Virus record (IMG/VR): IMGVR_UViG_3300009167_000009
Span: 1 to 60,258 of that record
From: a virus
Lineage: Duplodnaviria; Caudoviricetes
Length of the DNA stretch: 60,258 bases
Reading direction: 5' to 3' (one strand)
Positions 7,801-50,753 of this stretch are shown here, piece by piece. Position 1 is the first letter of the stretch. Each line of letters begins with the position of its first letter. Both the position numbers and the translations under genes were made by a program. Below the pieces are notes generated by a model that made no database searches, was not told the DNA's origin, and saw only the letters and a list, made by a program, of their open reading frames with translations.

Positions 7801-7854
7801 TCAGTCACGACAACGACATCGGTACATCTGGACGTGCGCGGGAGTGAACCATGA
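4819..7854 (+). CDS. long repeat-rich fibre-like virion protein
   Basis: 1011 aa; many ~23 aa repeats (PGAVTLxGQAVEAxxAVDAAxVL); C-terminal 10 aa His repeats. Confidence 0.7.
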   Translation: MPKWVFRPGWSIRGPRARRVYVEESQGGTGPQTLTGQAVEVLWGVTAAAVIAGAITIAGSAPEAVLTVDAATPQATITLAGQEPSSTWAVDAATPIPGAATITGQVVDVTFGVTPADVLPGGVTLSGQECVSTFAADDAGISVEGGTQVVDGVAAELSANVDGAAIVPGAVTLNGQAVEALAAVDVGTLLPGAVTLDGQPIVAVHAVDTAALVIEPVTLAGQAVAAVAAVDAAAVLPGAVTLNAQEVETVAHVEPAAVVATVTVAGDAPNTALAVEAAAVLPGAVTLDGQAAEALHAVDAATVAAGGVTLDGQAVEAVATVDAATLIPGAVTLAGDAPDVTLTVEVATILPGAATLEGQEPQDIFAVTTAAIQAEEGPVADYFFARRAQVSTFRSVFRGRSFVRHVRRMTWILTAGPSPQTINGDAVPVVFAVDTAAILAGPVTLDGDAPGVAAAVETAALVATATLAGEAVEAVAAVDAATVLPGAVTLEGVAPEAALAVEAAAVVPGAVTLTGQEPVAVHAVDTAGISSGVIREGQPVESVFAVDAATIIPGAVTVAGQAPEILHAVTDAAILPTVTLAGQEPQLTAEVQAGNVVAVAVLAGQPVESAFAVEVAAVVGGPATIVGQSVEGVWAVQTAQIIAQGGPQTLDGVAPVAMTLVDTATVVPGAITVQGSAPETLATVTEALVHRSVAGDAPSTVAAVDTAALLATITLPGDMPESVAAVTPATVIPGAATIAGVAPESVFGVETGTVTGAGVIAGQPVEVQFAITTAAVLPGAVTVAGSAPGAVLAVDAATLVVEPLTLAGDAPEALCAVEMGAVLPGSATVLGQSVETTFDVQTAAIVPTATIAGQTAEVVYGVTPAAVITGPATITGQIVESVWGVATANLVAQDAPQTILGTPVEGQFVVATAQVQSTMTLAGQPVETVLAVSVATLTANPYPDWRLVSSLIHASVTQATILHASGTQAATLHASVTSADLVHPSVTSAGIIHASVTTTTSVHLDVRGSEP

Positions 7855-11372: not shown

Positions 11373-11418
11373 CGAATATCGGGCGAATGTGGGGGAATTC
11401 TGGTGCCCACAAAACCGT

Positions 11419-11508
11419 GTCTTAGCGTCCCTGTAGCGGCCGTGGGCATCCGGGGGGTATCCCAACCCCGCCCGGACCCCGGAAAATCGCTTAGCGGGGC
11501 GCTAAGAC
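11419..11508. repeat. ~90 bp element with 13 bp terminal inverted repeats at the convergent gene junction
   Basis: gtcttagcgtccc (11419) versus ggggcgctaagac (11496-11508), 1 mismatch; related copy at ~29362-29451. Confidence 0.6.
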
Positions 11509-13706
11509 CGGTGCGCGGGGGGTGTTTGGGTGGCGGTCGGACCCGTAACGGCCGGGGACAGGTCCGATCCGTTCACTTTTCGTATCCGCATCTTGACCTT
11601 TGATATTTCGCGGACGCGCAATTCATCCTCGGTCCGGTACAATTCTGCACCCAGAATCGCGTTCTTGATATAGGGGGTCAACGACCAGGTATGCCGGTAG
11701 CCGCCATCGGCTCCATGGCGTTGCACAATGTCCAGTACGTTCAGATCTTGAAGGATGCGGCTGACCGTCGCCTGGGGATAACGCGAGATAGCGGCCAGGT
11801 CCACCGTCGAGATCGGGGCGGTCATCGAGGGATGCTGCCGAATCATGTAGCGAATGATGTCCTCGGTCCGTTGCGGCACCGTATCCAGCATTACCTTCTT
11901 CAGGAGGGTGTATTCCGGTTCCCCGACTTTCGGATGGCCATAGACAATGGCGAGGGACTGTCCGAGCTTTGCCAACTGGATGCCCAGTCGACTGCCAATC
12001 TCTGCGCTTGGTCGGCTGGTGATGATGTCGTTGTGGTAGGTGTCACGAGAAACCGTGCCACGCATCCGTGCGCCGAACATCCCAAGCTGTACGATACGAC
12101 GTGTAAGCGGCTCAGGCAATGTGGGGAGGTGTCGATGTGCCACTCTATCGGACAGAAAGGCGCGTACCACGTCTTGTAATTCATGCTGCATCGCCGTTTC
12201 TTTGTTGATGTTCTTGATGGCACGGGCAATGATGGCTTCCTCGCTATGGTGATTCAGGTTGTCGCCCATCATCAGTTTCATAAACCGTTCGCCCAGTTGG
12301 GCGTGCTGCCCCGCCAGGTCGTAGATGCGCGGCGTCACGGCCGCCAGGATCGAGAACCGGCTGGTGTAACTACGGACCACGCCATTGCCAAAGACCTTTC
12401 CACATTTCCCATCATACGCATCGCGCAGGATGCCGAAGATTTCGTCCTTGTCCGCGTCCCGCATGGACAGGATACTCGTGAAATCCTTGATGACCATGAT
12501 GCGGCCATTCAACTTCGGTATTAGTGACGGGTCCACACCATCTTTAATATTCGCACCAGAAATAAGACTAGGCGGCGTCAGTGTCGACGTCATGTAGACT
12601 TCTGGGTACAGCGACAACGCATTCAGCGTTTCGGTCTTGGCCCCACCGGGCGGCGACACCAGGAACATCCAGATCGGGGGGCCGGTGATATTCTGGCTCA
12701 CGATGGTTGCCAACATGACTTCAATCGGCACGGTGGAATCCAAGTATAGCCATTTCTTGAACACGGTGTTGACGTCTGCGATGGTCGGCACGGTGGTCGT
12801 CCAGTTGGACTTCGGCTCACCGGAAGCACGCGACGGTGGGGGACTGGCGGGCGCGGGGCGATTGTCCCATTCCCGCTTCGCTCGGTCCAGCGGGTCCAAT
12901 GTCCGGGTGTTGGAATTGAACAACTTTTTCAAGTTGGCCACACACGCCTTCGGTTTCTTATCTTTGACCATCCACCGGATGACCCAGTCCCGCACGTCGT
13001 ACCCTACTGGTAGTCCTGCGGGCCAGTGCAGGTAGGTCAACGATTGCACGGCGGTCTTCAACCGTTTCTCAACAAGCAGTTCCCCGTGTTCTCCGGCCCC
13101 GTCATTGTCGTACAGGGTATGGACCGTGCGGCCTGCGAACCACGGCACCCAGTCGGTTTTTAGCACGCCCGCGCCCGGTACACCGACCACGATTCCTGGC
13201 TCTCCGGCCTGCCGCAACGCTTCGTCCCAGGCGACCGTATCCCACTCGCCTTCACAGATGTAGACCGGTGCGGCCAGATCGCGGTTCAGCCGATGTGCGC
13301 CGAACAACCCGACCTCGATCCCTGCGGTCGAAATGGCGCGGCCTCCGGGTTTCCAGGTCCGAATGTCGACCATGTTACCCGAGGGGTCCAGATACGGAAT
13401 GGCATAGGTGTAGCCCGTCCAGCCCAAGTTCCACGGATGTAGGGCCGTGACCGGCAATCCCCGGTCATGCGCCAAGGCATTTAACCGGTCGGGTGTCAGC
13501 CGTTTGCGGTACAGCTTATGTATCTCGGCCAGGAAGCGGGGAATGTTGCCGCTGAGGCCAGCGGTCTTCGAGTCCCAGAGCCACGTCTTGATATTGACGT
13601 AGAACTTTTCCGCTTTATCGGTGAACGGGCAGGTGCCATAGATCTCGTCCCCGCGTTCGCCTGTGAATTCCACCCCATGCGACTCAAAGATGCGCCGCTT
13701 ATCCAT
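11502..13706 (-). CDS. DNA primase (Toprim)-helicase fusion
   Basis: CPF Zn-ribbon-like N-terminus; Toprim ICEGEWD and YDNDGAG; degenerate P-loop SPPGGAKT and IKDFT in the AAA+ part. Confidence 0.85.
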   Translation of the reverse strand: MDKRRIFESHGVEFTGERGDEIYGTCPFTDKAEKFYVNIKTWLWDSKTAGLSGNIPRFLAEIHKLYRKRLTPDRLNALAHDRGLPVTALHPWNLGWTGYTYAIPYLDPSGNMVDIRTWKPGGRAISTAGIEVGLFGAHRLNRDLAAPVYICEGEWDTVAWDEALRQAGEPGIVVGVPGAGVLKTDWVPWFAGRTVHTLYDNDGAGEHGELLVEKRLKTAVQSLTYLHWPAGLPVGYDVRDWVIRWMVKDKKPKACVANLKKLFNSNTRTLDPLDRAKREWDNRPAPASPPPSRASGEPKSNWTTTVPTIADVNTVFKKWLYLDSTVPIEVMLATIVSQNITGPPIWMFLVSPPGGAKTETLNALSLYPEVYMTSTLTPPSLISGANIKDGVDPSLIPKLNGRIMVIKDFTSILSMRDADKDEIFGILRDAYDGKCGKVFGNGVVRSYTSRFSILAAVTPRIYDLAGQHAQLGERFMKLMMGDNLNHHSEEAIIARAIKNINKETAMQHELQDVVRAFLSDRVAHRHLPTLPEPLTRRIVQLGMFGARMRGTVSRDTYHNDIITSRPSAEIGSRLGIQLAKLGQSLAIVYGHPKVGEPEYTLLKKVMLDTVPQRTEDIIRYMIRQHPSMTAPISTVDLAAISRYPQATVSRILQDLNVLDIVQRHGADGGYRHTWSLTPYIKNAILGAELYRTEDELRVREISKVKMRIRKVNGSDLSPAVTGPTATQTPPAHRS

Positions 13707-13718
13707 CGGGGAACGCCT

Positions 13719-13901
13719 TTACTGCCCGGCAATGCGCCGGACTTCTTGTTCGAGCTGTTGGAGCCGTTGTTGCACCTGTACGAGATAACTGTGAACGTGG
13801 GTCATCTCCTGTTTAGAAAGGAACTCGCGCGTGGGCTTTCGCCGTGTGGTGTGGACCAGACGACAGATGTCGTTGCACAGGTTGATGCGGTCTGACTTCA
13901 T
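13719..13901 (-). CDS. small hypothetical protein
   Basis: 60 aa with coiled C-terminus; overlaps polymerase 3' end. Confidence 0.45.
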   Translation of the reverse strand: MKSDRINLCNDICRLVHTTRRKPTREFLSKQEMTHVHSYLVQVQQRLQQLEQEVRRIAGQ

Positions 13902-16900
13902 GGTGTGCTTCTACCTTCAGCGATGCGTCAACTTTGTACGGGCAGTCCTGCATAAACTCCCGTAATTCCGCGAACGGGGCTTCGTCACGCGGCACCCCGC
14001 CCTTTACCCAGGGCGGTAGTTTGATATCCACCGTATGCGACCAGCGTTTCCACGCGACCTTCATCCCCACGGGCAACGGCACTGGGATACCGCAGTGTTC
14101 AGAATCCATCTGCATCACCCACACAATGTCTTGCATCAGCCGCATCGAGTGGGACTCGAATGGTACTTCGATAATCATCTCATCATGGACCGTATTCAGA
14201 AGTCCAAGCAGGGGGTGCTGCCACCGATGGTCCAGCATCCAATCGACGCGCATCGTGGCGACCTTCAACAGGTCCGCGGCCGATCCCTGGATGAGATAAT
14301 TCACAACCTTGTACGCCCATTCCCGTTCCAGTTTGTAGCGGCGTCCGTACAGGTTCCAGGCCTCACCATTGGCCGTAGCTTCGTTGGTCATCTTTCGCAT
14401 GAAGGTGACAACGGACGAAAACTGTTCCTCGAATGAGTCGATAAATGCCTTGGCTTCCCGGAACGGCATCTGCAACAGTTTCGTCATCCGTCCGGGGCGC
14501 TGTTCGGTGCCGACGCCGCCGCCGTACAGTTTCCCGAACATGATGAGCTTGGCCAACTTGCGATAGTACTTCTTCCGTTGCTCGTAATCCGGTTTGCGGA
14601 CGAAAGATTTGTCCGCGACGCCCTGGTGGAAATCATACCCAGAAAGGAGGAGCTCCTGCATGTTGGCCTCACCCGACATGAACGCGAACAACCAGACTTC
14701 AATCTGACTGTAATCGGGCAGATACCACAGGCATCCGGGGCGCGGCCCGAAACACTCACGCGGTCGGGCCGGGATATCGGCTTTGCGTAGTCCGGTGGTG
14801 GCCGACGCCACCTGCTGCAGATTGGGGTCTGAATTTTTTGCGCTCAATTCCCCGGCAAAGAAGTTGTGGTGTTCATCAATCCACAAGTCATATACCGGAC
14901 GCATGACTGTCAATGGCTCAACACGTATGACACGATGATTGCCCCCTATTCCTCGGTCATAGTAAGGATTATTCGGTCGGCCGCGCAGCCCCCGCGCAAA
15001 TTTCTTTACCGTTTCCAAAGAGTAAAATTCCTTGACGTGTTTCCGGAAACAGGTATAGTCAAGGTGTTCGCCACGGCACGCCAAGGTCATCGACCATCGG
15101 TACTTTTCCAAGGTGGTCGTGATCGTTTCCCGTGTCCAATGGGTGTAGTTGCCGTTGTTTTCTCCTTTTGAATGATCTGATTTGTGAAGGTGCTCTGACC
15201 TCCATTCCAAGTTACTGGGACGATTGTCTTGAAAATTGCCGTTGCAATGGTGCGCGTGCATTCCTGGCAACGCCCGAGCCCTTGCCATTTCTTCAAGAAT
15301 GAACCGTGACTCGTACTGTAGAGACTGTTCCGTGACCGCAACACGCGCCCTATTTCTTGGGGAATCACGGTGTATTGCAGCAATGTGATCTCCAGGGCAT
15401 AAGTCTCTTGCTGCTACCCATTGTCCATCGACCGTACGAAGTTTATGCTCTGGCGTAACGTCTAGGTGTCCAATCCGTTGACGCCCTTTTCCTTGTTTTC
15501 CCCTCCAGTGAACCCGCACTAGAGCATGGGCGATGCCTCGGTTCCACACCTTCTTTACTTTACGTAGATGTAGGGTGCCCGTATCTTCGTCCATACAATA
15601 GGCCCAGTCACCGGGACGCACATCTTGTACTGGAATGCCCTCTGGGTGCTGCGACAAGTCACGGGCAATCTCAATCGGCGTGTCCTCCGCAATGCAACAG
15701 GTCATGCGCCCGGTAACGGCCCCGGTTTGGTTATAGTTTGGATGGAGAATCCATACGCCTTTGCTTCCATCCCATTTCCCATCTGGACAACGAACTGCAT
15801 TTCCTGTCCGGCCTGGGTACGAAGTTGGATACCAAAACTTGGCGTAGATATTGAGAAACGATTTGATGGACTGCTTCGCCGCACGCCATTCGAGGACCGC
15901 TTTCGCGAGCGGATCCTTGAACTCCCCCGTGTCTTCATCTGTGGCCCCCAATTCCGCCAACTTGTCTTTGCCCAGGGCCATGTTCCCCTTTTCCGTGTAC
16001 ATCGGGGCATACCCCAGCTCGGTATAAAACTTGTGGGTGAGCTGTTTGGGCGACATGAAGTTCATGCCAGCCCCGCCGTTTGCGTCGGCCATCTTCCGCA
16101 TCTTGGCCATGTACTGCGTATACCAGACGACCAGATGCTCGGTCCAATCGGGATAGACCCGCGTTCCCCGCTTCTCCATTTTCCGCAATACCCAGAACAG
16201 TTGCATCTCCCGTTCATACGTAGCCCGGATGCGCGGATCCCGATCCAGTTCCGCAACCATGAGTAGGTACAGCATCATGGCGCGTTCCACATCCCCGACC
16301 GCGTATCGCTGACACAGGTCGGGCGGGGCCAGCCAGTAATCGGCCTTGACCGGTTTGTTCCCGGCGAACACGACACGCTCGCCCCGTTCAACTTCTTTCT
16401 TTCCTCCCGCAATCAGCCAGCCCTTGGCCCGTGCCTCGCGTCGGGCCTCGGCCACGGCATGTTCCAGTTCCTTCTCATCGTCGTCCGGAAAGGCCAGGTA
16501 TTTCTTGCACAACGGCTTCAACGCATACGACAACTCATCCCCGGCCGTCACCACATGGGCCAGTACCATCGTGTCGTCTACGTTGTGATTCGTAATGGTA
16601 TAGCCCATGGCCTCCAACATCCGCAGGTCATAGGCGATGTTGTGGCCGACCAGTTGTAGGGTATTGTCCGTGGCAATGCGTTTCAGAATGGCTTGCTCGG
16701 CCGGGGTGCCCAGCACTACGCGCCGCGTACTGGGCTCGACCTTCCATCGGAAGTAGGCCGTGTTCCCTTCGCCATCGCAGAACGCGAACGCGAACGGCCG
16801 CGCCGGATAGTAGCCCCAGTACTCGGGCGGACCGTAGGGAATCAGGCCCGTGCCCTCCGTATCGAACGAAATCCGGTTCGACCGGAAATTCGAGAACAAT

Positions 16901-16926
16901 CGCGGCAACGCGGACCGGACCAGCAT
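13813..16926 (-). CDS. polA: DNA polymerase family A (3'-5' exonuclease + polymerase), intein-interrupted
   Basis: ExoI FDTEGTG, ExoII GHNIAYD, ExoII YAVGD-type motif; motif A DYSQIE, B RKLAKLIMFGKLYG, C VHDE; start set at TGATG overlap 16926. Confidence 0.93.
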   Translation of the reverse strand: MLVRSALPRLFSNFRSNRISFDTEGTGLIPYGPPEYWGYYPARPFAFAFCDGEGNTAYFRWKVEPSTRRVVLGTPAEQAILKRIATDNTLQLVGHNIAYDLRMLEAMGYTITNHNVDDTMVLAHVVTAGDELSYALKPLCKKYLAFPDDDEKELEHAVAEARREARAKGWLIAGGKKEVERGERVVFAGNKPVKADYWLAPPDLCQRYAVGDVERAMMLYLLMVAELDRDPRIRATYEREMQLFWVLRKMEKRGTRVYPDWTEHLVVWYTQYMAKMRKMADANGGAGMNFMSPKQLTHKFYTELGYAPMYTEKGNMALGKDKLAELGATDEDTGEFKDPLAKAVLEWRAAKQSIKSFLNIYAKFWYPTSYPGRTGNAVRCPDGKWDGSKGVWILHPNYNQTGAVTGRMTCCIAEDTPIEIARDLSQHPEGIPVQDVRPGDWAYCMDEDTGTLHLRKVKKVWNRGIAHALVRVHWRGKQGKGRQRIGHLDVTPEHKLRTVDGQWVAARDLCPGDHIAAIHRDSPRNRARVAVTEQSLQYESRFILEEMARARALPGMHAHHCNGNFQDNRPSNLEWRSEHLHKSDHSKGENNGNYTHWTRETITTTLEKYRWSMTLACRGEHLDYTCFRKHVKEFYSLETVKKFARGLRGRPNNPYYDRGIGGNHRVIRVEPLTVMRPVYDLWIDEHHNFFAGELSAKNSDPNLQQVASATTGLRKADIPARPRECFGPRPGCLWYLPDYSQIEVWLFAFMSGEANMQELLLSGYDFHQGVADKSFVRKPDYEQRKKYYRKLAKLIMFGKLYGGGVGTEQRPGRMTKLLQMPFREAKAFIDSFEEQFSSVVTFMRKMTNEATANGEAWNLYGRRYKLEREWAYKVVNYLIQGSAADLLKVATMRVDWMLDHRWQHPLLGLLNTVHDEMIIEVPFESHSMRLMQDIVWVMQMDSEHCGIPVPLPVGMKVAWKRWSHTVDIKLPPWVKGGVPRDEAPFAELREFMQDCPYKVDASLKVEAHHEVRPHQPVQRHLSSGPHHTAKAHARVPF
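14833..15696 (-). mobile_element. intein (288 aa) with HNH homing endonuclease
   Basis: Starts CIAEDTP, block B VTPEHKL, block F PVYDLWI, ends HNFFAGELSAKN before Ser; splits TGRMTC|SDPNLQ; internal HHCNGNFQDNRPSNLEW; AT-richer than flanks. Confidence 0.92.
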
Positions 16927-17357
16927 CACTCGATCTCGGCCGTGTGCGGGTACAGCCACGGCAACATCAGACACGCGTCACAGGGGTCGTCTCCGGCATG
17001 TTTCTTGGTGCAGGGATTCTGTTCGCACCAGCGCGTGATGGCGAGCAGATACTCCTTCTTGTGTGTGATGATAAAGTCCATCATCACCGCGTAGTTGGCG
17101 ATATCCACCAGATGATTGTGCAGCGTGTCGCCTTCCAACGGTCGGCCGGTGCGGATGCCGGTCTGAATCGCGCCCCAATGCTTCCGCATGGCATTGTAGA
17201 TGGATAGCTCTGGTGTGGTGTTGGTCTCGGCTGCCGTCCACCAGGCTTCGCTGATGGCAATATCCTTGGGTGCATAGTCACGTCCCTTGTCGTACATGAT
17301 GACTACACACTTGTCAAAGAATTCGCGTGTGAAGATGATTTGGTCCCGAACGGTCAC
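16926..17357 (-). CDS. Nmad1/DUF1599-like (MazG-fold) nucleotide-modification-associated protein
   Basis: KGRDY and HLVDIANYA motifs; all-alpha; start position uncertain. Confidence 0.7.
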   Translation of the reverse strand: MTVRDQIIFTREFFDKCVVIMYDKGRDYAPKDIAISEAWWTAAETNTTPELSIYNAMRKHWGAIQTGIRTGRPLEGDTLHNHLVDIANYAVMMDFIITHKKEYLLAITRWCEQNPCTKKHAGDDPCDACLMLPWLYPHTAEIE

Positions 17358-20117: not shown

Positions 20118-21185
20118 CTATTTTTCGCCCGTTTCCGCCAACTCCTGCGGCGTGGGGTAGACGCCATTGGTCGGCACCCAGCGAACTGCGCCTCCGGCCA
20201 TGGACTCCGGTGCCAGCACCCAGAAGGGGTTCTGTTCCGGACGGTGCGCCCGTGGCAGCTGCGCGTCGGACGCATCGGCCGGATGCTTGCCATCCGGTGT
20301 CCAGGACGTCATGGCCGACATCGTGGCCCGTCCCGCCCGGTCACTGTGGCTGCCTAAGTTGGCCCAGATACGTTCGGGACAATGGATGTGCAGTTCCCGG
20401 AGCATCAGCTGCGCCACACAGTTAATTTCCCAGTCCATGACGTGTTCCAGCCGATTGGCCAGTACGCCCTTCAACGCCTGATAATTGTAGATGGCGTGGA
20501 TGTAGGTCTGCGTTCCCATCGTCAGCACGCGACGGGCATCCTGCCACGGGATCCCGGCATCGACTAGGGCCGCGTAGATGAACTTTCCTTGCTCAATGTG
20601 TTCCTCGATCACGGAGTCCAAGCCAATGGCTTTTGGTGGAACTCCTCGAACACTGGCTTCGTATTTCATCAGATCGTCAAGGGGTTTCCAACTTGTCACA
20701 CAACACCCTTCCGGGTAAGGTTGTGCTGATTTCTTTCCATGAGCGAGGTCAGCTTCACAGGCACGAGCAATCGTCTCGGGCATGGTCCAGCCCCGGTGCC
20801 GCCAATCGTTGTCGCGGCCTCCGTGCTGCATGAAGGCCGCGCCCATGCGCGTCCGAACCAGCTGGTGTGTGGTGGCTCGGCTCACCCCGTCGATGGTGAA
20901 CCAGAACGTCAGACCCTCCAACACCTGGGGCAACGTCTGCCCGGCGAAACACCGGTCCAGATAAGCGTCGGCATCCGGGTTGTCTGTAGCTTCGTTCACA
21001 ATGCGCGATGGGGATTCACCCCAGTTCGCTTGTAAGGCGTCGTACATGGGGCGCTCGAAGTCCTTCGGACCCCAGGTGTCCAAGGTCACCGTGATCCCGT
21101 AGGGACCACGTGAGATCGGTGTGGTCGGCGGCTCACCCGTATGCACAGCATGAGGCCGATGGCCCACGTCAGTTGGTTTTGGCAC
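20118..21185 (-). CDS. thyX: divergent FAD-dependent thymidylate synthase (ThyX-like)
   Basis: FTIDGVSRATTHQLVRTR...R, GIPWQDARRVL, NRL...WEI; signature residues substituted. Confidence 0.8.
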   Translation of the reverse strand: MPKPTDVGHRPHAVHTGEPPTTPISRGPYGITVTLDTWGPKDFERPMYDALQANWGESPSRIVNEATDNPDADAYLDRCFAGQTLPQVLEGLTFWFTIDGVSRATTHQLVRTRMGAAFMQHGGRDNDWRHRGWTMPETIARACEADLAHGKKSAQPYPEGCCVTSWKPLDDLMKYEASVRGVPPKAIGLDSVIEEHIEQGKFIYAALVDAGIPWQDARRVLTMGTQTYIHAIYNYQALKGVLANRLEHVMDWEINCVAQLMLRELHIHCPERIWANLGSHSDRAGRATMSAMTSWTPDGKHPADASDAQLPRAHRPEQNPFWVLAPESMAGGAVRWVPTNGVYPTPQELAETGEK

Positions 21186-22152
21186 GTTTTTCCTCCTTGT
21201 CCATAATGTCTTGTAACGAGGTGACCCACGATAGTTGCCCGTCTATCCACTCTAATTTCGCCTTGGGTTGTAAGGCCGGGTGTCGCTGCATCCAGTAGGT
21301 GCGAATCCCAGCTTGAAGATACTGACGGACGAATTGTTCTTCATCGTCAACAGCGAACATGACTTGTCTACTGATATCTCGGACATTGATCTGATGGGCT
21401 TTGTCGAATCCCCACCAGACAAAGTCATACGCGAACGCGCCGTGATTTAACCAGTGTAGGGTGTCATCGTAAAGCGTCGGGTACTTGTCAATCGGGCGTG
21501 AGGTTAGGATGATGATCTTCCATCCCTTGTCCCGGCACCACCGGGTAAACTCCGCGGCCTTTGGCCGAGCGGGCAGCATCCGTTTCGCCCCCGAGGTGCG
21601 GAAGGCGTGTTTGATTTCCAGCCACACCTGCTGACTGCATTGCAAGGATGCGGCGTTGATCCACTCGACACCGTGGGCCAATTCCTCTAATGCTTCACTT
21701 GAGGCCCCTACCGCATCCGTCCACAGCGTGGACTTGATCCACTGGACCAGTCCCCGTGGATAGTCGCACAACACGTTGTCCAGGTCTAGAATGACCATCG
21801 GCCCGGTCAACTGCTGGACCCATTCTTCGACATACCGTTGACGGACGGCTGCCGATTTGCGCCAGTACGCGTCGTCCAGTTCTTCCTCGGTGAACCCCCA
21901 CACCTGCGCCACGGTGATCCAGTACTTGCGAATGTCCGTCAACTCCGCCAGGATCTGCGGTCGGTTTTCCGGCACGACCTCCCGCCGATGGGACTTCCAC
22001 GCCCCACTGGCCCGGAGCAATTCATCGCACTCCGAAATCAGGTGTAGTACCATCTCCTTGGTCAGGGCGGTGCGCTCCGGATAGGTGGTTGGCCAGTTGG
22101 GGCGTAGCAATCGATTGAATTCATGTTGATCGCGCCAGATGTCACTGTCCAT
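21169..22152 (-). CDS. dimeric dUTPase/MazG-like NTP pyrophosphatase fused to HAD 5'-nucleotidase
   Basis: N-half ISECDELL..WKSH..AELTDI..AYWRK; C-half ILDLDNVLCD, LTSRP, K, VDD HAD motifs. Confidence 0.8.
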   Translation of the reverse strand: MDSDIWRDQHEFNRLLRPNWPTTYPERTALTKEMVLHLISECDELLRASGAWKSHRREVVPENRPQILAELTDIRKYWITVAQVWGFTEEELDDAYWRKSAAVRQRYVEEWVQQLTGPMVILDLDNVLCDYPRGLVQWIKSTLWTDAVGASSEALEELAHGVEWINAASLQCSQQVWLEIKHAFRTSGAKRMLPARPKAAEFTRWCRDKGWKIIILTSRPIDKYPTLYDDTLHWLNHGAFAYDFVWWGFDKAHQINVRDISRQVMFAVDDEEQFVRQYLQAGIRTYWMQRHPALQPKAKLEWIDGQLSWVTSLQDIMDKEEKRAKTN

Positions 22153-29362: not shown

Positions 29363-29500
29363 ATTTGCCGCCCCTTACAGGCCCGAACGGGCCACGGGCG
29401 GACCCGCAACCCGTCCCGGCCCCCGTTCGCGTCCTACAGGGACGCTAAGACGCCTTCCCGTGGTCAATTTATTGACGCCCAAACCCCGGATCGGCCCCCA

Positions 29501-41362: not shown

Positions 41363-41403
41363 TCCAGCGGCCCATCCGCTGGCATTAGCTCACGACCACG
41401 GAC

Positions 41404-41778
41404 CTACGAGATGCCGCCCTTGGCGCGGGGCATCTCGTTGAACAGTTCGGGCATCTGGCCCAGAATGGTGATGGACACCACGCTGGACAGGCCCACGGCC
41501 ACATCGTAGTTGCGGTCGGCCGGGGTGTACGTGAAGTACGCTTCGCCGTGCGCGTCTGGCCCAGACATGTAAAACCCCTGGGCAGTGGTTACGGTGACGG
41601 CGTTCGACTCCGCGTTGTGGATGAGCAACGTGACCCCTCGCGTGGCGGGGCGCACGCACGGCTCCGCATACGCAGGGACCGGCACGGCACGGTCCGCTTC
41701 CGTGGCGTAGACGGCCACATTCGGCTCGTCTGGGACCGGATACGCGGTCGGGACTGGGACGGGTCGCACTTTCTTCAT
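41404..41778 (-). CDS. hypothetical protein
   Basis: MKKVRPV start after GGAGG. Confidence 0.55.
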   Translation of the reverse strand: MKKVRPVPVPTAYPVPDEPNVAVYATEADRAVPVPAYAEPCVRPATRGVTLLIHNAESNAVTVTTAQGFYMSGPDAHGEAYFTYTPADRNYDVAVGLSSVVSITILGQMPELFNEMPRAKGGIS

Positions 41779-42107
41779 GACGCCCTCCGAACGGTGCGGT
41801 TGACTGAACGCGGCACGGTGTCGCAGCATGGGCCTGCCAACGCGGGGCGACCGCCGCCCACGTGGAGGCGTTGCGCGATGAGCCACGGGGCTGCCTTGTG
41901 GCACCGGGGGCACTGGAACCCGAACTGATTGGGACCGGGGAGCCACACGTCTCCCGGTTGGTGGACGGGCCTGGGGACTGTGATGGGTTGCGTGCTGGAC
42001 GGGGCGGATGCGCCCCTGCCCAGGCCGCGCCCGTTCCGGCCGATGACGGCGAGGGACCGGCGGCACCGGGAGGGGTCGAGGGTGAACGGCGGATGTGGTT
42101 TCTGCAT
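41775..42107 (-). CDS. hypothetical protein
   Basis: MQKPHPP start after AAGGA; CPRC; ATGA overlap. Confidence 0.45.
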   Translation of the reverse strand: MQKPHPPFTLDPSRCRRSLAVIGRNGRGLGRGASAPSSTQPITVPRPVHQPGDVWLPGPNQFGFQCPRCHKAAPWLIAQRLHVGGGRPALAGPCCDTVPRSVNRTVRRAS

Positions 42108-42919
42108 AGCGATTGTCCTTTCCCGGACGTGGGTGAGCTGCGGTGACGGGTCGGGTCGTGAGCTAATGGCAACGGACGGTGGACTGCGGAGTGGAGGGGT
42201 GGACCGGTGGGAAACAGGGGTCCGGTCGGCGGCACGCGCTGCGCGGCCGACCGGACCCGTGCTCTCACGTGCGCGGGTGCGCTCGGTTGGCCGTGTGCGA
42301 CAAGGATTTGGGCGACTTACCGCGACGTCAGCGAACCCACGGTTCCGACGACTGCGGCGACCGGCCGGGTGCGGGATCTTGGGCTTGGGTGCCTTGGTCC
42401 CCACGCATCCAGAGCTTGTCCGGTCCCTGTCTCGTCAGAATGTGTGCCACCCGCCGCACTGCGGCGAATGGTGCCGTGGGGGAACTGACGACCGCGCTGG
42501 GTCGCCGGGGCGCGTGTTTGCTGCGCGCCGGGTGTCTGCGCGTTGGTCACGGGTGCCACGACTGACAGATAAACCGCCCGGCCACCAACTTCGTTGGCGG
42601 CGTTGTGGCGTCCTGCGTGGCGTGTCCCGATCTGCGCAAACCCCTTCCCTTCCCCGTCGGGACCGTGGACGGACACGGCCCTGCCGATGCGGTTGTCAAA
42701 GCTGCGACGCCCACTCACGGTCCCGATTTCTGCGGCATGTAAGTCGGACGGGACGCGCCACATGGTTGCTGGCACGAAGCCGGTGGGGGCCGACGCGCAG
42801 ATGGCGTCGGCCGTGGGCGGTAGGACACCGATGGACTCGACTGTATACGGCGACGTGAGACGGACCCGTCCGTCCCCCGTCCGTCCGCCGCATCCGCCGT
42901 GTCCACATGCCATGTGGAC

Positions 42920-42955
42920 ATGGTATCAATCCTATTGGGGATAGCAACTACAAAA
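42920..42955 (-). promoter_or_regulatory. sigma70-like promoter with upstream TTTTGTAG motif
   Basis: TTTTGTAG-TTGCTA-N16-TACCAT with TG extension. Confidence 0.55.
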
Positions 42956-43539
42956 GGTGGACTGAAACCTACAAAAGTGTCTGACTTTTGTTCAGAAAAA
43001 CAGGGCGAGCCTGCTATGGAAGAAAGACGGACAGAGGGGAGAGTGGCATCCTCATTGCATGTGGTGAGGGAAAAGTAGGGGGAAGGGAAAGATTAAGTGT
43101 TAGCCAGTTTCGAGTTCTTCGAAGCCCTTCCGCTCGGTCTTTCTGACTACGATCTGGCCCTCAGGGGAGTCCTTTCTCCACGCGGTGTAGTTCTACAAAG
43201 CCTATACAGCTGAATACCGCCTCGCGAAGACTTTAAGCCCCTTATTCTACATCTTACTACGAGTGTAGACGAGATAAGGCTCACAAAGTGGAACATACCA
43301 CGCATCGTCCGCTTTATAGACTACATAAGGCTTGCTTACGCCTTTCTCCAGCCCAGCCTGGCCGAGACTGCCTATCGTCTTTCTGGAGTAGAGAATAGAT
43401 AAGGCTAGGGCTAGGTGGCGGCGGCTCCAGCGCGCGCTTCTAGCGCTAGCGCTCCCGGATCTCAGGCAAGCCCTAGGCGGCGATCCGAAGCCTCGCCCCT
43501 TCCTCAGGGGGAGCGGAGCAGAGGCTGGGCACCCGGCCG

Positions 43540-43580
43540 AAAAAAAACGACCGGACCGGCCGCGATGGCCGATCCGGCCG
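43540..43580 (-). terminator. intrinsic terminator
   Basis: - strand CGGCCGGATCGGCC-ATCGC-GGCCGGTCCGGTCG followed by T8. Confidence 0.85.
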
Positions 43581-43596
43581 TTTCCGGCCGTTCCGT

Positions 43597-43827
43597 TTAC
43601 CGCATGTTCACGTCGCGTAATGCCGCCAACGTCATCATGTCCGGCGATACATAACACGCGTCATGCACCCCGCAATCGGCGCGTCCGCACGCGGGCGCAT
43701 ATCGGCACGTCGCCATCCCATCCGCACAACGGCGGATGTTGCGGGCAATCGGGCATCCACGCCATAATCCCGGCACCCACGTTTCGACGAATACCCGAAT
43801 TCGGTATATGTTCATTGTCGTGTCCAT
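43597..43827 (-). CDS. small Cys-rich hypothetical protein (AG/CT-free gene 2)
   Basis: 76 aa; stops just before the terminator. Confidence 0.5.
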   Translation of the reverse strand: MDTTMNIYRIRVFVETWVPGLWRGCPIARNIRRCADGMATCRYAPACGRADCGVHDACYVSPDMMTLAALRDVNMR

Positions 43828-43871
43828 GGAAACGGCCGGATCCCGCGTATGGGATCCGGCCGATTGTCCGA

Positions 43872-44543
43872 TTACGCCGTTTTGGTGTCACGCCACACAC
43901 GGGCGGCCGTTTCCGCCATCGCATTGTTCATGCCGGGTGTGTCGTTGTGGTCGTGGGCGACGAAACGCCCGAACGTCGACGCGAAATAATCCGCGTGGGT
44001 TCGATAATCGCATTTCGTGGTCCCCAACACGAAACGCCACACGGCCGCGCCGAAATTCACCGGGATCCGTTTCCACGGGATCCCGGCAACCATGAACGCA
44101 ATGTAAATCGCGTTTTGTGTCCGGGCGATATCGGACCCGGATCCCAACGTATACCGGTGACCACGTGACGGTGCCGGGGTCGCGTCGGCCGCGTTCAACG
44201 CGTCGATCCACGCGTCAAACGATGCCGCGTTCCGATCCGTGTCCGGGATCCGATTCCACGCGACGTCAATTGTCGCGCACATCGGGCCGATCCACGCGGG
44301 GACGTTTCCGACATGTTCGGGAAACAATACCCGGAACGTGTCCGGAAACGTCGGCACGGCCGGAACGTCGACGGCCGGAACGTCGGGGACAATCCCGACC
44401 AACGTGTCGGCCGACGTGGACGTGTCGGCCGTGGACGTGTCGGCCGACGTGGTAACGATGTCGGCCGGAACGTCGGCCGTGGACGGTGCCGGGATGGCCG
44501 GTACCGTGTGCCGTTTCGAACCCCGAACGGAACGTGTGGGCAT
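43872..44543 (-). CDS. hypothetical protein with low-complexity N-terminus (AG/CT-free gene 1)
   Basis: 223 aa from MPTRSV; AG-free RBS GCGGGGA; TSAD/PADV repeats then a globular domain. Confidence 0.7.
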   Translation of the reverse strand: MPTRSVRGSKRHTVPAIPAPSTADVPADIVTTSADTSTADTSTSADTLVGIVPDVPAVDVPAVPTFPDTFRVLFPEHVGNVPAWIGPMCATIDVAWNRIPDTDRNAASFDAWIDALNAADATPAPSRGHRYTLGSGSDIARTQNAIYIAFMVAGIPWKRIPVNFGAAVWRFVLGTTKCDYRTHADYFASTFGRFVAHDHNDTPGMNNAMAETAARVWRDTKTA

Positions 44544-44653
44544 GTTGTTTCCCCGCGTCGTAACGTCGACGCAACCGTCCACGCCACACGACACGCATAC
44601 GCCGTTCGCGGGATTGCGTACGGCGGAAACGGGGTCGCGTGTCATGGCGACCG

Positions 44654-44733
44654 ACCAGTTCTTGAGCTGAAGCCCTAAAGTGGAAAAAGTGATTTTACCA
44701 GTTCTTAAGCTTGCCCCCTAAAGTGGGAAAAGT
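44654..44733. repeat. tandem 37 bp direct repeat (period 43)
   Basis: 44654-44690 versus 44697-44733, 31/37 identical. Confidence 0.85.
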
Positions 44734-44749
44734 CAATAAAGCTACGAGC

Positions 44750-44958
44750 AATTCAACTCACGTTTGGCGAACCCCCCCCGTGTCCGGTGGTGCGGCCCCA
44801 TTGATGGGAAGTCCCCCAATAACCACCCGATCTTATATGTCTTAAGTAATTTTTTTTTTTTAACTAAGGATCAATGATCATGGGGGCCAACCCGCCTTCC
44901 CCCATTACCGGCCCCCCTCCCCGCCCACCACGTCCATGTGCCAACCGTGAGGTGAATT
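44750..44958. repeat. palindromic origin-like element, copy 2
   Basis: aattcaactcacgtttggc ... gccaaccgtgaggtgaatt around an AT-rich core with T12; same architecture as 28481-28680. Confidence 0.75.
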
Positions 44959-45094
44959 CCGCATTTTTGAGCAAGTTTCCCCGCAATCCGTAAGTCCCCC
45001 CAATACAACAACTTACCAACTTCCTTCCCCTACTTAATCGCCGCCCCATCCCCCGAAAAAACCCGTCAAAAAAAGTGCGGCGATTTCCCCCCGA

Positions 45095-45105
45095 TGTGGT
45101 ATGAT
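45095..45105 (+). promoter_or_regulatory. extended -10 promoter, probably giving a leaderless mRNA
   Basis: TGTGG-TATGAT ending 6 nt before ATG at 45112. Confidence 0.5.
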
Positions 45106-45111
45106 CCCCCC

Positions 45112-45798
45112 ATGAGCGACCGCCCAACCGACCAAGCCCCGCCGCGCCCCGAATGCGCCCTTCCCGGATGCCAGTCGCCAGCGGCACGCCGCTACGACCG
45201 CCCTGGGAAGTATCGGCGGTGGTGCGACCGGCACACCCGCCGCACCGCACGGCACAAGACCCATCGCCGGGGCCGTCCCCCCATCGCACAGCCCCCGGAC
45301 CCCGACGCCCCCGATGCCCGCGTATGCCCGGTTCCAGGGTGTGTCCGCAAGCGCGAATTGCGGGGCCGTCACCCCACCACCGGCCACCCCATCTTCCGCT
45401 GGACGTGTCAAGCGCATCGGGGCGCGATTCCGAACCGCACCGTGCCGCCGCCCCCGCCAGCCAAGCCCCGCACGCCGTGGAAGCCACAAGTGGACGCCCC
45501 CGTCCACCCCTTGCCCATTCCCGCCCCCATCAAGACCAAGAAACATCGCGGCCCCACGCACACGCCGCTGGTCAACGCCCCCGTGTCCGTGCCCGCCGTG
45601 ACCGTGACCACGTCGAGCGACGGCACCTGGCAATTGAGCCGGGACGATGTCACCTTCTTGACCCAGCAACAGCGGCGCGGCACGCCCGCCTTCGAAGTCG
45701 GCATGTCCCCCCACCTCAGCCGCCCCCTGCCCACCAGTGTCGTGTATCGGGTCTGGGGGTTGATGAATCGCGAAGAACTTAAACTGGAGGACGTATGA
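45112..45798 (+). CDS. Pro/Arg-rich protein with two CxxPGC...CxxH Zn-finger-like motifs
   Basis: CALPGC..WCDRH and CPVPGC..TCQAH. Confidence 0.6.
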   Translation: MSDRPTDQAPPRPECALPGCQSPAARRYDRPGKYRRWCDRHTRRTARHKTHRRGRPPIAQPPDPDAPDARVCPVPGCVRKRELRGRHPTTGHPIFRWTCQAHRGAIPNRTVPPPPPAKPRTPWKPQVDAPVHPLPIPAPIKTKKHRGPTHTPLVNAPVSVPAVTVTTSSDGTWQLSRDDVTFLTQQQRRGTPAFEVGMSPHLSRPLPTSVVYRVWGLMNREELKLEDV

Positions 45799-46007
45799 AA
45801 CGGACGCGAATACAGGTGACCGTAGACATCCAGACCGAGGACGAGTGGGCGTCCGGGGGCATTGAACCCTGGCGCGTCAGTCGGGCTATCGTCTTGCCCG
45901 CCGCAGACCACATGAATCCGGAAGCGATACGCTCGGCAATACATGTCGTGTGTGACGAAGTCATCGGGAACACCGTCGAGTATCTCGGCCTGAGGTTCCC
46001 CGCATGA
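45795..46007 (+). CDS. hypothetical protein
   Basis: 70 aa, GGAGG RBS, ATGA overlaps. Confidence 0.55.
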   Translation: MKRTRIQVTVDIQTEDEWASGGIEPWRVSRAIVLPAADHMNPEAIRSAIHVVCDEVIGNTVEYLGLRFPA

Positions 46008-49145: not shown

Positions 49146-50752
49146 ATGAAACCGCCACGTACCCTGGGGGACGTCTTGTTGCGACGGCAGGCCGAGCCGA
49201 CCTCGACCTCGACGCCACTGATGCCCGCAATTACCGGGCTGCGGGCCGCACGCGGTGATACTCCCAAGCAACAGCGTATCGCCGCGTGTGAATCCAGTAT
49301 CGAGACATTTTGTACGACCTACCTCCGGCACCACTTCTCCAAGAAGTTCTGTGAGCTCCACCACGACATCTTCACGATTTGCGACGACCCGGCCCCCGGC
49401 AAACGCAAAGCCCGCATCGCGCCCAGAAAGTTCGGCAAGACCACCATCATCAGCTTAGCCAAACCGTTACAGGAGCTCGCGTATAAGCGCAAAGAATTCA
49501 TCCTGATGATTGGCGAGGCGGCGGCGGTTGCCGAGTCGAACCTGGCCACCATCATTCAGGAGCTCGACACCAACGAACTACTGCTCCAGGATTTCCCGCA
49601 CCTCTCGCCCGCAAAAGACCCCAAGGGCCAGATGATCAAATGGACGGACCGTCAGCTGGTCTTTGTCAGCGGCGCAACCGTCGTGGCCAAGGGGATGGGC
49701 AGCCGGATGCGCGGCCTAAAACATCGTCATGCGCGACCGGACATGGCGATTCTGGACGATCCGGAGTCGCCCGAGACGGCCGATACGTTCCTGAAACGGC
49801 GGCGGCACAAGCGGTGGTTCGGCGGCACGTTCCTGGGATTGGGCGCGTCGGACTGGGACGTGTACGTGATCGGGAACTTGCCGAATCACGATTGTCTAAT
49901 TGCGGACTTGGTCAAGGATCCGGCATGGGATGGCCGGTTATGGCGAGCGATCAACATCCCCGCTCGTAGAGATGAGCGCTACCCCCTTGGCAACACACGG
50001 GAGGATGGCTCCGCCCTGTGGCCAGAGGAATGGTCGCTCGCCAAACTCGAGGCCTATAAGAAGGAGCCCGAGGTCGGATCGCTGGGGTTTGCGCGGGAAA
50101 TGCTGAATGACCCGCGCGAGGAAGAAGACAAGTCCTTTGACCCGGCGACGTTCACGTATCTGGAATGGACGCCGAACTTGTTGTCGACGTACTCGGCCAT
50201 TCGGACCTATATCGACCCGGCCGGAGGGGAGAAGCCAGGGGAGATGAAACGGGGCAAGCGGGACTGGTGCGTGGTGGTGACGGCGGGGCGCACGAAGAAG
50301 GAAGGCTATATCGACGTGTTCGATGTCCGGATGAACCGCTTTCTTCCCAACAAACAGATTCAGGTCATGTTAGACGCTTACGCCGCGTATGGGGCGCAGG
50401 AAATCGGCGTCGAGGAAAACATGTTCAAGAACCTGATTGCGCCCACGATCCAGGGCCTTGCGCGGAAACGTGGCCTCTATCCGCGCATTGTGCCGAACGT
50501 CAACACCTCGAATAAGATTAGCCGCATCCTGGGCATTCAGCCGCTGATTGAAAGCGGGGTGGTGCGGTTCGCTCGCCATCTGGTCGATAAGGTGCCGGAG
50601 TACTTTGGGCAGTTCGACGAGTTCCCTGCGGACTTTGACGATGGTCCCGATGCCAGTGAAGGCGTCATCCGCATGTTAGAATCCGGACGGAAGTCCTTTG
50701 GCCGGTTGTCGGGGCCAACCGCGTCGAAGTCGTATTGGAAGGGAGTGGCCTG

Positions 50753-50753
<1 letters not shown>
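49146..50753 (+). CDS. terL: terminase large subunit
   Basis: APRKFGKT, MRG...RPDMAILDDPE, nuclease YIDPA, GVEEN, DDGPDA. Confidence 0.93.

Follow-up and report, generated by a model that had tools for sequence, protein, structure and literature searches.

A dense AG/CT block of untranslated DNA behind an AG/CT-free early gene: a candidate boundary module in a tailed phage

Why would a phage crowd one of its non-coding regions with the dinucleotides AG and CT, and keep the gene directly beside it entirely free of them? The locus that raises this question lies in a complete virus record of 60,258 bp (IMGVR_UViG_3300009167_000009; Duplodnaviria, Caudoviricetes; 60% GC), which was analysed over its whole length and is called the window below. 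Here, a dense non-coding block (42932..43526) abuts a minus-strand early transcription unit (43527..44656) that contains not a single AG or CT. On our best reading, the block is a boundary module that is not translated and that closes, at its 3' end, an immediate-early cassette of a single gene in this ~60-kb tailed phage. The anatomy of the cassette and the selection acting on it in both directions are what the data establish; from them we infer what the block may do.

The compositional contrast far exceeds what chance would give. Between 42990 and 43526, where an earlier sequence-only reading had noted about 540 bp of AG/CT-dense non-coding DNA, we counted 102 AG+CT in 537 bp, compared with a mean of 48.3 (standard deviation 8.7) in 537-bp windows of the genome and 66 in the next best non-overlapping window. 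The true left edge of the dense stretch is at 42932, and the complete block holds 111 AG+CT in 595 bp. Its strand-symmetrised AG/CT odds ratio is 1.50 against 0.76 ± 0.08 (maximum 1.01) in other 595-bp windows, and the windowed profile proposed in that reading thus places the block 8.7 standard deviations out (z = 8.7). The corresponding GA/TC value in the block is unchanged at 1.10 (z = 0), so that the AG/CT excess is not an effect of purine or pyrimidine tracts. Other stretches of at least 60 nt outside gene calls (n = 28) have observed/expected values of 0.47–1.22, and those of at least 200 bp lie between 0.49 and 0.98, which takes the block out of the range of the other intergenic DNA. Terms such as 'saturated' or 'maximal', used for it earlier, were too strong, since the density of 0.19 per bp, or one AG:CT step per 5.4 bp, compares with a theoretical ceiling of 0.5. 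The right edge is as abrupt as had been described: the last CT occupies 43525–43526 and is followed by an AG/CT-free gap of 1132 bp, the next longest such gap in the genome being 74 bp. Five CTAG sites reported at ~43405–43476 were likewise found in place, at 43405, 43411, 43440, 43446 and 43473, and represent 5/29 copies in the genome.

Enrichment in the block is diffuse. With 121 nt of repeated motifs masked, the odds ratio is 1.38, and it is again 1.38 when a conserved core (see below) is masked too. The sites are also distributed more regularly than under a first-order Markov model, with 7 gaps of at least 10 bp where 13.0 ± 2.3 are expected (P = 0.005); three spacing statistics were tested, and P was 0.059 and 0.86 for the remaining two. 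The AG/CT sites of the block show no periodicity, helical or otherwise. In 400-bp windows the odds ratio peaks at 1.59 in the block, whereas the maxima of 14 profiled loci, related or neighbouring, are 0.96–1.32. Because no window of these loci reaches 1.5, we rejected the idea that the block is a foreign island whose composition is ordinary. The GC content of parts of the block drops only to ~45%. As had been supposed, there is no convincing open reading frame (ORF): the longest wholly inside the block has 52 aa, and an overlapping frame of 136 aa has no homologue in the protein database.

The AG/CT-free unit contains a minus-strand ORF of 257 aa, P0001 (43872–44645), and closes with a minus-strand terminator-like hairpin (43547–43563) and a T8 run (43540–43547). 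The free zone begins 11 nt ahead of the P0001 start codon and ends 13 nt after the T8 run, and therefore matches the transcribed unit and not the ORF alone; because it begins 11 nt before the start codon, P0001 has no Shine-Dalgarno sequence. The order of the cassette is thus a conserved promoter and repeat region, the AG/CT-free gene, the hairpin-plus-T8 terminator, 13 nt, and ~600 bp of repeats and palindromes. A hairpin scan placed a further terminator-like hairpin, on the plus strand, at 43575–43590. The unit also holds a minus-strand ORF of 76 aa, P0002 (43597–43827), which is not conserved in relatives: a relative in run X4 joins 43593 to 43829, skipping 43594–43828, and the relative L019 has no second ORF, so that P0002 represents an insertion private to this phage. 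The DNA inserted at 43594–43828 is itself still AG/CT-free.

Scans of P0001 and P0002 against Pfam, PHROG and NCBIfam families returned no match, nor did a tblastn search of 50,697 phage records with P0001. The P0001 family is small but genuine, with 17 representative clusters among 1.84 billion proteins. Its structural model has a predicted local distance difference test score (pLDDT) above 90 over residues 100–257; there is no Foldseek match in PDB or BFVD at E ≤0.001, the best VIA Z-score is 4.3, and the protein atlas yielded nothing usable. The ban on AG can be read in the proteins themselves, since an AG-free coding strand rules out Lys, Gln or Glu before Val, Ala, Asp, Glu or Gly. Such AG-forcing dipeptides are missing from 18/20 P0001 homologues, with a chance per protein ranging from 0.09 to 3e-5, and the other two carry 12 and 4. 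In place of Glu and Lys, the whole family uses Asp and Arg except for P0020, one of the two proteins with such dipeptides, in which the use of Glu and Lys is normal. These protein sequences indicate that the AG ban is old, family-wide and costly. The isoelectric points of the family range from 4.5 to 10.2 with variable net charge, which rules out the family as a uniform DNA mimic.

Relatives with DNA across this locus (L019, L021 and L023) came from a metagenome scan with a degenerate right-flank pattern, which returned 15 loci, 12 of them by chance. The three form a second lineage and are ~90% identical to one another and ~70% identical to the window in the gene, and the L019 protein is ~51% identical. 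L019 repeats the layout of the window, with two right-flank repeats, a GTG-started gene, a TAA stop and a hairpin with T8, and has an 818-bp zone devoid of AG/CT (476–1294). Beginning 15 nt past its T8 run is a dense stretch with 88 AG+CT in at least 476 bp (to the contig end), an overall odds ratio of 1.48 that reaches 1.6–1.7 in 100-bp windows, and no ORF above 63 aa wholly inside.

Alignment of the two dense stretches revealed a conserved core beside the terminator, at 43426..43521 of the window and 268–361 of L019 (67/97 columns; local score 31, compared with 10.9 ± 1.3 and a maximum of 17 for shuffled sequences). Outside the core (494 nt of the window, 267 nt of L019), the alignment score of 12–13 is at the shuffled level (10.0 ± 1.3), and the odds ratio of these non-alignable parts is 1.44 in the window and 1.63 in L019 (1–260). 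The repeats are different as well, a 23-nt tandem and a ~40-nt unit, two copies each, belonging to L019 and three 21-nt repeats to the window instead. Since the same density recurs in L019 in sequence that does not align with the window, the AG/CT density itself appears to be under selection; a check on whether density and not sequence is conserved had been suggested, and this outcome speaks for it. On the side of the gene, 31 sites of the free zone distinguish L019 from L021, and none of these differences creates an AG or CT. The chance of 0/31 is ~4e-6 at an all-substitution rate of 0.33 and, by our own arithmetic, ~1e-4 at a transition-only rate of 0.25, which argues that purifying selection maintains the AG/CT-free state in these relatives. 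The proposal of selection in both directions is accordingly borne out by the 0/31 sites, the 18/20 proteins and the recurrence of density in unalignable L019 sequence.

The ban covers a transcription unit, the array follows closely on its terminator, and the density has outlived the turnover of the sequence; on these grounds we interpret the block as an array of target sites. The factor that these sites serve would read the AG:CT step on phage DNA, and the early gene would be composed so as to escape it. From its position behind the terminator, the array would detain, absorb or halt either the factor or the process that it drives, which may be transcription read-through, DNA translocation or DNA entry. 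The first-expressed gene would thereby be set apart from the rest of the early operon, in the way proposed for the repeat region of phage T5. Candidate readers could be a host nuclease or a reader of CRISPR protospacer adjacent motifs (PAMs), DNA modification by the phage, a primase or the protein of the cassette itself. A cis-acting boundary or sink array for a reader of the AG:CT step is, in our judgement, a real possibility that falls short of an even chance. A transcriptional insulator had been named earlier among the functions of the block, and the placement, 13 nt after the T-run of the terminator, fits a boundary or insulator. The specific mechanisms put forward there found no direct support, and no evidence emerged for DNA modification, a genome end or an injection pause.

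Several observations weigh against this array. Family scans of ~97 ORFs with Pfam, and of selected ORFs with PHROGs and NCBIfam, revealed no methyltransferase, nickase or other DNA-modifying gene, although a novel enzyme may lie among the many ORFs without any family, and no reader of the AG:CT step was identified. No genome end lies demonstrably near the cassette, and the relatives of the large terminase include Mu-like phages. Phages of that kind package by headful, which weakens the case for a fixed first-entering end. Repeats, palindromes and a conserved core, as are typical of ordinary operators or origins, are present in the block too, and the right flank has not kept its density, with values of 1.53 (window), 1.22 (L019) and 0.68 (L021). 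Conserved density on the block side is seen in one relative only, L019, together with a weak positional analogue in L012, a distant IMG/VR contig whose terminase is 54% identical. In L012 the P0001 homologue is not AG/CT-free (21 AG and 43 CT), and the odds ratio of the contig still peaks, at 1.32 (z = 3.4), in a non-coding stretch downstream of the homologue, a position that favours the array; two ORFs lie between, and the stretch has no sequence similarity to the block. A moderately dense stretch that occurs without an AG/CT-free gene suggests that the two features may not be mechanistically coupled.

The closest known parallel is phage T5. According to the T5 account (bioRxiv 10.1101/866236), the pre-early genes are followed by untranslated repeat regions, with an injection-stop signal (iss), whose conservation exceeds that of the ORFs and which are proposed to stop DNA entry; EcoRI and CRISPR reach only targets in the first-entering region. 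Exposure of that region to sequence-directed nucleases would be a reason to purge words there. Both phages have a long untranslated stretch with direct repeats, inverted repeats and palindromes behind their first-expressed genes, placed here behind a terminator, and in both, non-coding parts are conserved at least as well as the ORF, in our case the right flank and the 96-nt core. On the other hand, no terminal repeat or genome end was seen in the contigs of the phage studied here, it has only one DnaA-box-like pair, which is at chance frequency, and Pfam and PHROG family scans returned no relatives of A1, A2 or dmp (T5 proteins were not compared directly). The defining property here, conserved dinucleotide density beside a dinucleotide-free gene, is not described for T5 in the portion of that account at hand (bioRxiv 10.1101/866236).

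Might the block simply be an ordinary control region, with promoters and operators of the delayed-early genes and AG/CT richness as a by-product of their motifs? The location, between the terminator and the next leftward genes, would suit such a role, and so would the motif content. A 21-nt repeat ending in ATAAGGCT (family D5) occurs on the plus strand at 43261–43281, 43312–43332 and 43386–43406, spaced by 51 and 74 nt, and ATAAGGCT has no further copy in the genome. Several repeated 9–10-mers and palindromes are present, as are two plus-strand copies of CTACAAAAG at 42948 and 42969, along with an 8-bp inverted repeat ACAAAAGT-N5-ACTTTTGT (42971–42991, plus strand). The 96-nt core conserved in L019 (43426–43521) contains the palindromes AGCGCGCGCT and AGCGCTAGCGCT as well as GGATCTCAGGCAAGCCCTAG and GAAGCCTCGCCC, and 3/5 CTAG sites (43440, 43446 and 43473), those at 43405 and 43411 lying just to its left. 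The 257-aa protein could bind here as an activator, repressor or antiterminator, and the top structural rows for P0001 are indeed helical DNA-binding domains, but with Z ≤4.3 and no significance. What such a region fails to explain is the density: the odds ratio still stands at 1.38 with repeats and core masked, the enrichment recurs in non-homologous L019 sequence, and no other stretch outside gene calls exceeds 1.22. A consensus scan also detected no sigma-70-like promoter within the block. An operator and promoter region, or an origin, is the main rival, accounting for the repeats and the core and not for diffuse density independent of sequence; we consider a plain control region rather unlikely. 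Terminal inverted repeats of a mobile cassette were also considered and dropped, since the left edge and the right intergenic region share inverted 9-mer matches no more often than chance would give and do not align.

Another reading is a replication origin or priming zone. Here the block would offer dense template 5'-CT-3' sites on both strands to a DnaG-type primase, and the neighbouring gene would be unprimable on either strand. DnaG is a documented reader of this word: the enzymes of Proteobacteria and Firmicutes initiate at d(CTG) and d(CTA), the third base being cryptic, and pppAG opens most primers of E. coli (PMC2978363). A CT-less stretch would be blind to such a primase and a CT-dense one a hot zone. 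The phage has its own primase (11502–13706), family A polymerase and helicase, and the block has AT-richer parts (GC minimum ~45%) and iteron-like repeats, namely the three 21-nt copies; no initiator gene was recognised. The trinucleotide preference of the enzyme, however, is missing from the block, in which CTA and CTG make up 44% of CTN versus 47% genome-wide and are not favoured over CTC and CTT. There is also no evident reason why a single priming event inside the gene should be lethal, no link to an origin emerged, and the skew minima of the genome merely follow the switch in transcription direction. We regard a priming zone as improbable. As for DnaA-box-like words, one inverted pair of 8/9 matches lies at 42899–42921, formed by the arms of the palindrome at 42900–42920, and the genome has 16 matches where 14.3 are expected, a chance frequency, for a consensus that may not be that of the host.

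Dense modification of AG/CT, already suggested in the sequence-only reading, would make the block a heavily modified patch obstructing RNA polymerase or DNA transfer, and would leave the gene as the only stretch without modification. A two-letter reader of AG does exist, since chloroviruses encode the pair Nt.CviQII, which nicks R^AG, and M.CviQII, which methylates AG (PMC3017599). The phage studied here differs in having no detected nickase or methyltransferase gene. We know of no pairing of the chlorovirus system with AG-free genes or AG-dense arrays.

Word counts in the phage group bear on this idea from two sides. The hexamer palindromes CATATG, CCCGGG, CGATCG, GCATGC, GGGCCC and GTGCAC have 0 copies in the genome, where 8–46 of each are expected, and across 162 kb pooled from the phage group (the window, G001, L002, L005 and L012) CCCGGG, GGGCCC and GTGCAC again have 0 copies and CGATCG has 2. 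Restriction sites are thus strongly avoided, and purging of words by selection is active in this group. Under a second-order Markov model, hexamer palindromes containing AG/CT are not depleted while the others are (pooled observed/expected 0.95 versus 0.47, P = 0.0006; GC-matched P = 0.001 and 0.035), and the sparing of AG/CT palindromes would fit protection by modification. This conclusion depends on the model, given that a mononucleotide expectation makes both classes about two-fold depleted, because AG/CT itself is depleted. Moreover, at least six hexamer palindromes are fully absent, so the DNA is open to ordinary restriction enzymes, and no modification gene was detected in the ORF family scans; with no methyltransferase or other DNA-modifying enzyme among the ~97 ORFs scanned, the suggestion of dense modification has no direct support, and we rate it as about as improbable as priming. 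Avoidance of restriction sites resembles the present case in its purging of words and is distinct from it in that it usually concerns 4–8-bp sites genome-wide, not a two-letter step in one gene; to our knowledge it has no enriched counterpart. Words with two AG/CT steps 2–3 bp apart (AGSCT, CTNAG, AGAG and CTAG) are 3- to 7-fold depleted, and AGCT is depleted only as two independent steps predict. For AGSCT the depletion elsewhere in the group is 5- to 7-fold (observed/expected 0.14–0.17), and the dense blocks hold 8/26 of its copies in the genome and 5/5 of those in L019, a contrast that counts in favour of the target-site array.

A non-coding RNA is slightly less probable again. An example would be a plus-strand transcript running from 42921 to the hairpin at 43575–43590 and serving as a sponge or antisense barrier. 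Immediately left of the block lies a 74-nt AG/CT-free spacer (42858..42931), exceeded in length by only one other such gap in the genome. It carries a palindrome, TGTCCACA-N5-TGTGGACA (42900–42920), directly followed by TGGTATCAA (42921–42929), which resembles an extended -10 element. This element and its upstream palindrome stand exactly at the start of the density, and terminator-like hairpins occur on both strands at the junction of block and gene. Against such a transcript, the -10 element is missing its final T, most of the sequence is not conserved in L019, the folding energy of the block is not unusual on either strand (z = -1.3 plus, -0.4 minus), and Rfam gave no match at the gathering threshold anywhere in the window, rows up to E 1 being outside the block or far below threshold.

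A packaging signal, or a neighbour of the physical genome end, is very improbable. The block does lie in a zone of ~2 kb, rich in non-coding DNA, that separates the early from the late gene arm, and some siphoviruses have their cos sites in such a place. However, the contigs of four sequencing runs and of L019, L021 and L023 pass through neighbouring regions with no common end, and ~5 kb separate the block from the probable genes of the small and large terminase, which disfavours the packaging role once suggested for it; 44761–45093 is a better conserved candidate for an end.

Returning to an array of target sites for a reader of the AG:CT step, a wider version of this reading is that the step serves as the recognition unit of a widespread early-infection process, and that phages carry a matched pair of a step-free first gene and, behind its terminator, a site array that works by density and captures or halts the reader. 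We give this extension slightly less weight than the reading itself. The price of a step-free first gene is paid in the use of Glu, Lys and Gln. If the reading is right, the block would be a cis element recognised by composition and not by sequence, a class not described for phages, and the free-and-dense pair would mark, from sequence alone, the gene that a phage must express first. It would also point to a process that reads a two-letter DNA step, such as a defence nuclease, a PAM-type reader, DNA modification or a primase. Searching metagenomes for this pair would be easy and could turn up immediate-early anti-defence genes as well as the hosts or systems that impose the ban, and the 257-aa family, with no known fold, offers an experimental handle. 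Open-access papers and bioRxiv full text yielded no description of dinucleotide-free early genes or dinucleotide-dense companions in phages.

On the other side of the gene, the right flank (44657–44760) has 19 AG+CT in 104 bp, an observed/expected value of 1.53, and is AG/CT-rich as the earlier reading had stated. Its sequence is strongly kept in all four relatives, more so than the protein, but of the two sides only the left block has the look of a compositional element. A 37-nt direct repeat (ACCAGTTCTTNAGCT...CCCTAAAGTGGRAAAAGT; family D7) occurs twice upstream of the early gene (44654..44733), with a minus-strand extended -10-like element, TGGTAAAAT, between the copies; L019 has two copies of this repeat, and L021 and L023 have one each. 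By our reading, the read-through start of P0005 also matches the translated right flank. Beyond this flank, between the leftward early genes and the rightward genes, a divergent intergenic region (44761..45093) aligns with L019 (1380–1700), L021 and L023 and contains C-runs, a T12 run (44850–44861) and the 20-mer CAACCGTGAGGTGAATTCCG. Its nucleotide sequence is conserved between lineages in which the neighbouring protein is only ~51% identical, and it is a candidate for early promoters or for a cos-type end.

The block and the AG/CT-free gene sit just left of the point where transcription diverges, with plus-strand genes from 45094 onward, wrapping round to 10950, and mostly minus-strand genes from 44645 down to 11049; skew minima track this switch and nothing more. 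The phage encodes a large terminase (49146–50753), a Mu/P23-45-type portal, a major capsid protein, ThyX and an exonuclease, and for replication a family A DNA polymerase with an intein, a primase, an SNF2 helicase and a Sak4-like protein. Its terminase is only ~28% identical to that of the nearest deposited phages. A blastn search of 42000–46000 against the phage collection at a distant setting returned no match, and viral-contig searches with P0001, search profile A2, two neighbouring ORFs and three DNA motifs were equally empty, as was search profile A1 in the first metagenome scan and in genome contigs. IMG/VR relatives found through the large terminase (12 loci) end before the locus, and G001 ends inside the polymerase gene. 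The stretch is present in five entries from four studies, none of them an RNA entry, and the four sequencing runs were examined as contigs. A 20-mer match in a betaproteobacterial metagenome-assembled genome (L031) was considered as a clue to the host and taken as chance, there being no further similarity.

Left of the block, ~800 bp of 68–70% GC (42107–42930) separate it from the next clear gene, which starts at 42106 with GGAAAGGA upstream. No frame in this interval has a coding GC pattern, a strong minus-strand hairpin lies at ~42215–42255, and the interval could be a long leader or an RNA. Farther left, a 26-nt inverted repeat, 88% complementary (41372–41397 and 42154–42179), flanks two small minus-strand genes (~41404–42106).

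Other features of the genome were recorded in passing. The polymerase gene (13813–16974, minus strand) is split by an intein that includes an HNH endonuclease domain (Pfam Intein_splicing at residues 458–709 and HNH_3 at 570–593). Adjoining the long ThyX-like gene, a minus-strand ORF (21169–22152) encodes a 327-aa fusion of MazG/dUTPase-like and HAD-phosphatase-like parts, a nucleotide-pool enzyme; a kinase of the thymidine-hypermodification type was rejected for this ORF after family scans. The protein P0003 is found in identical form on a contig of 68,665 bp, 8.4 kb longer than the 60,258-bp record, which could be a wrapped circular assembly, reflect a long terminal repeat or represent a larger variant. 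On the plus strand, an ORF of 1011 aa (4819–7854) with no family match contains at least eight diverged copies of a ~69–138-nt repeat and is probably a repeat-domain tail fibre or decoration protein. Finally, two intergenic regions that lie 18 kb from each other (11404–11436 and 29434–29466) carry a word of ~18 nt, CTACAGGGACGCTAAGAC, in opposite orientations; this word may be a shared regulatory site.

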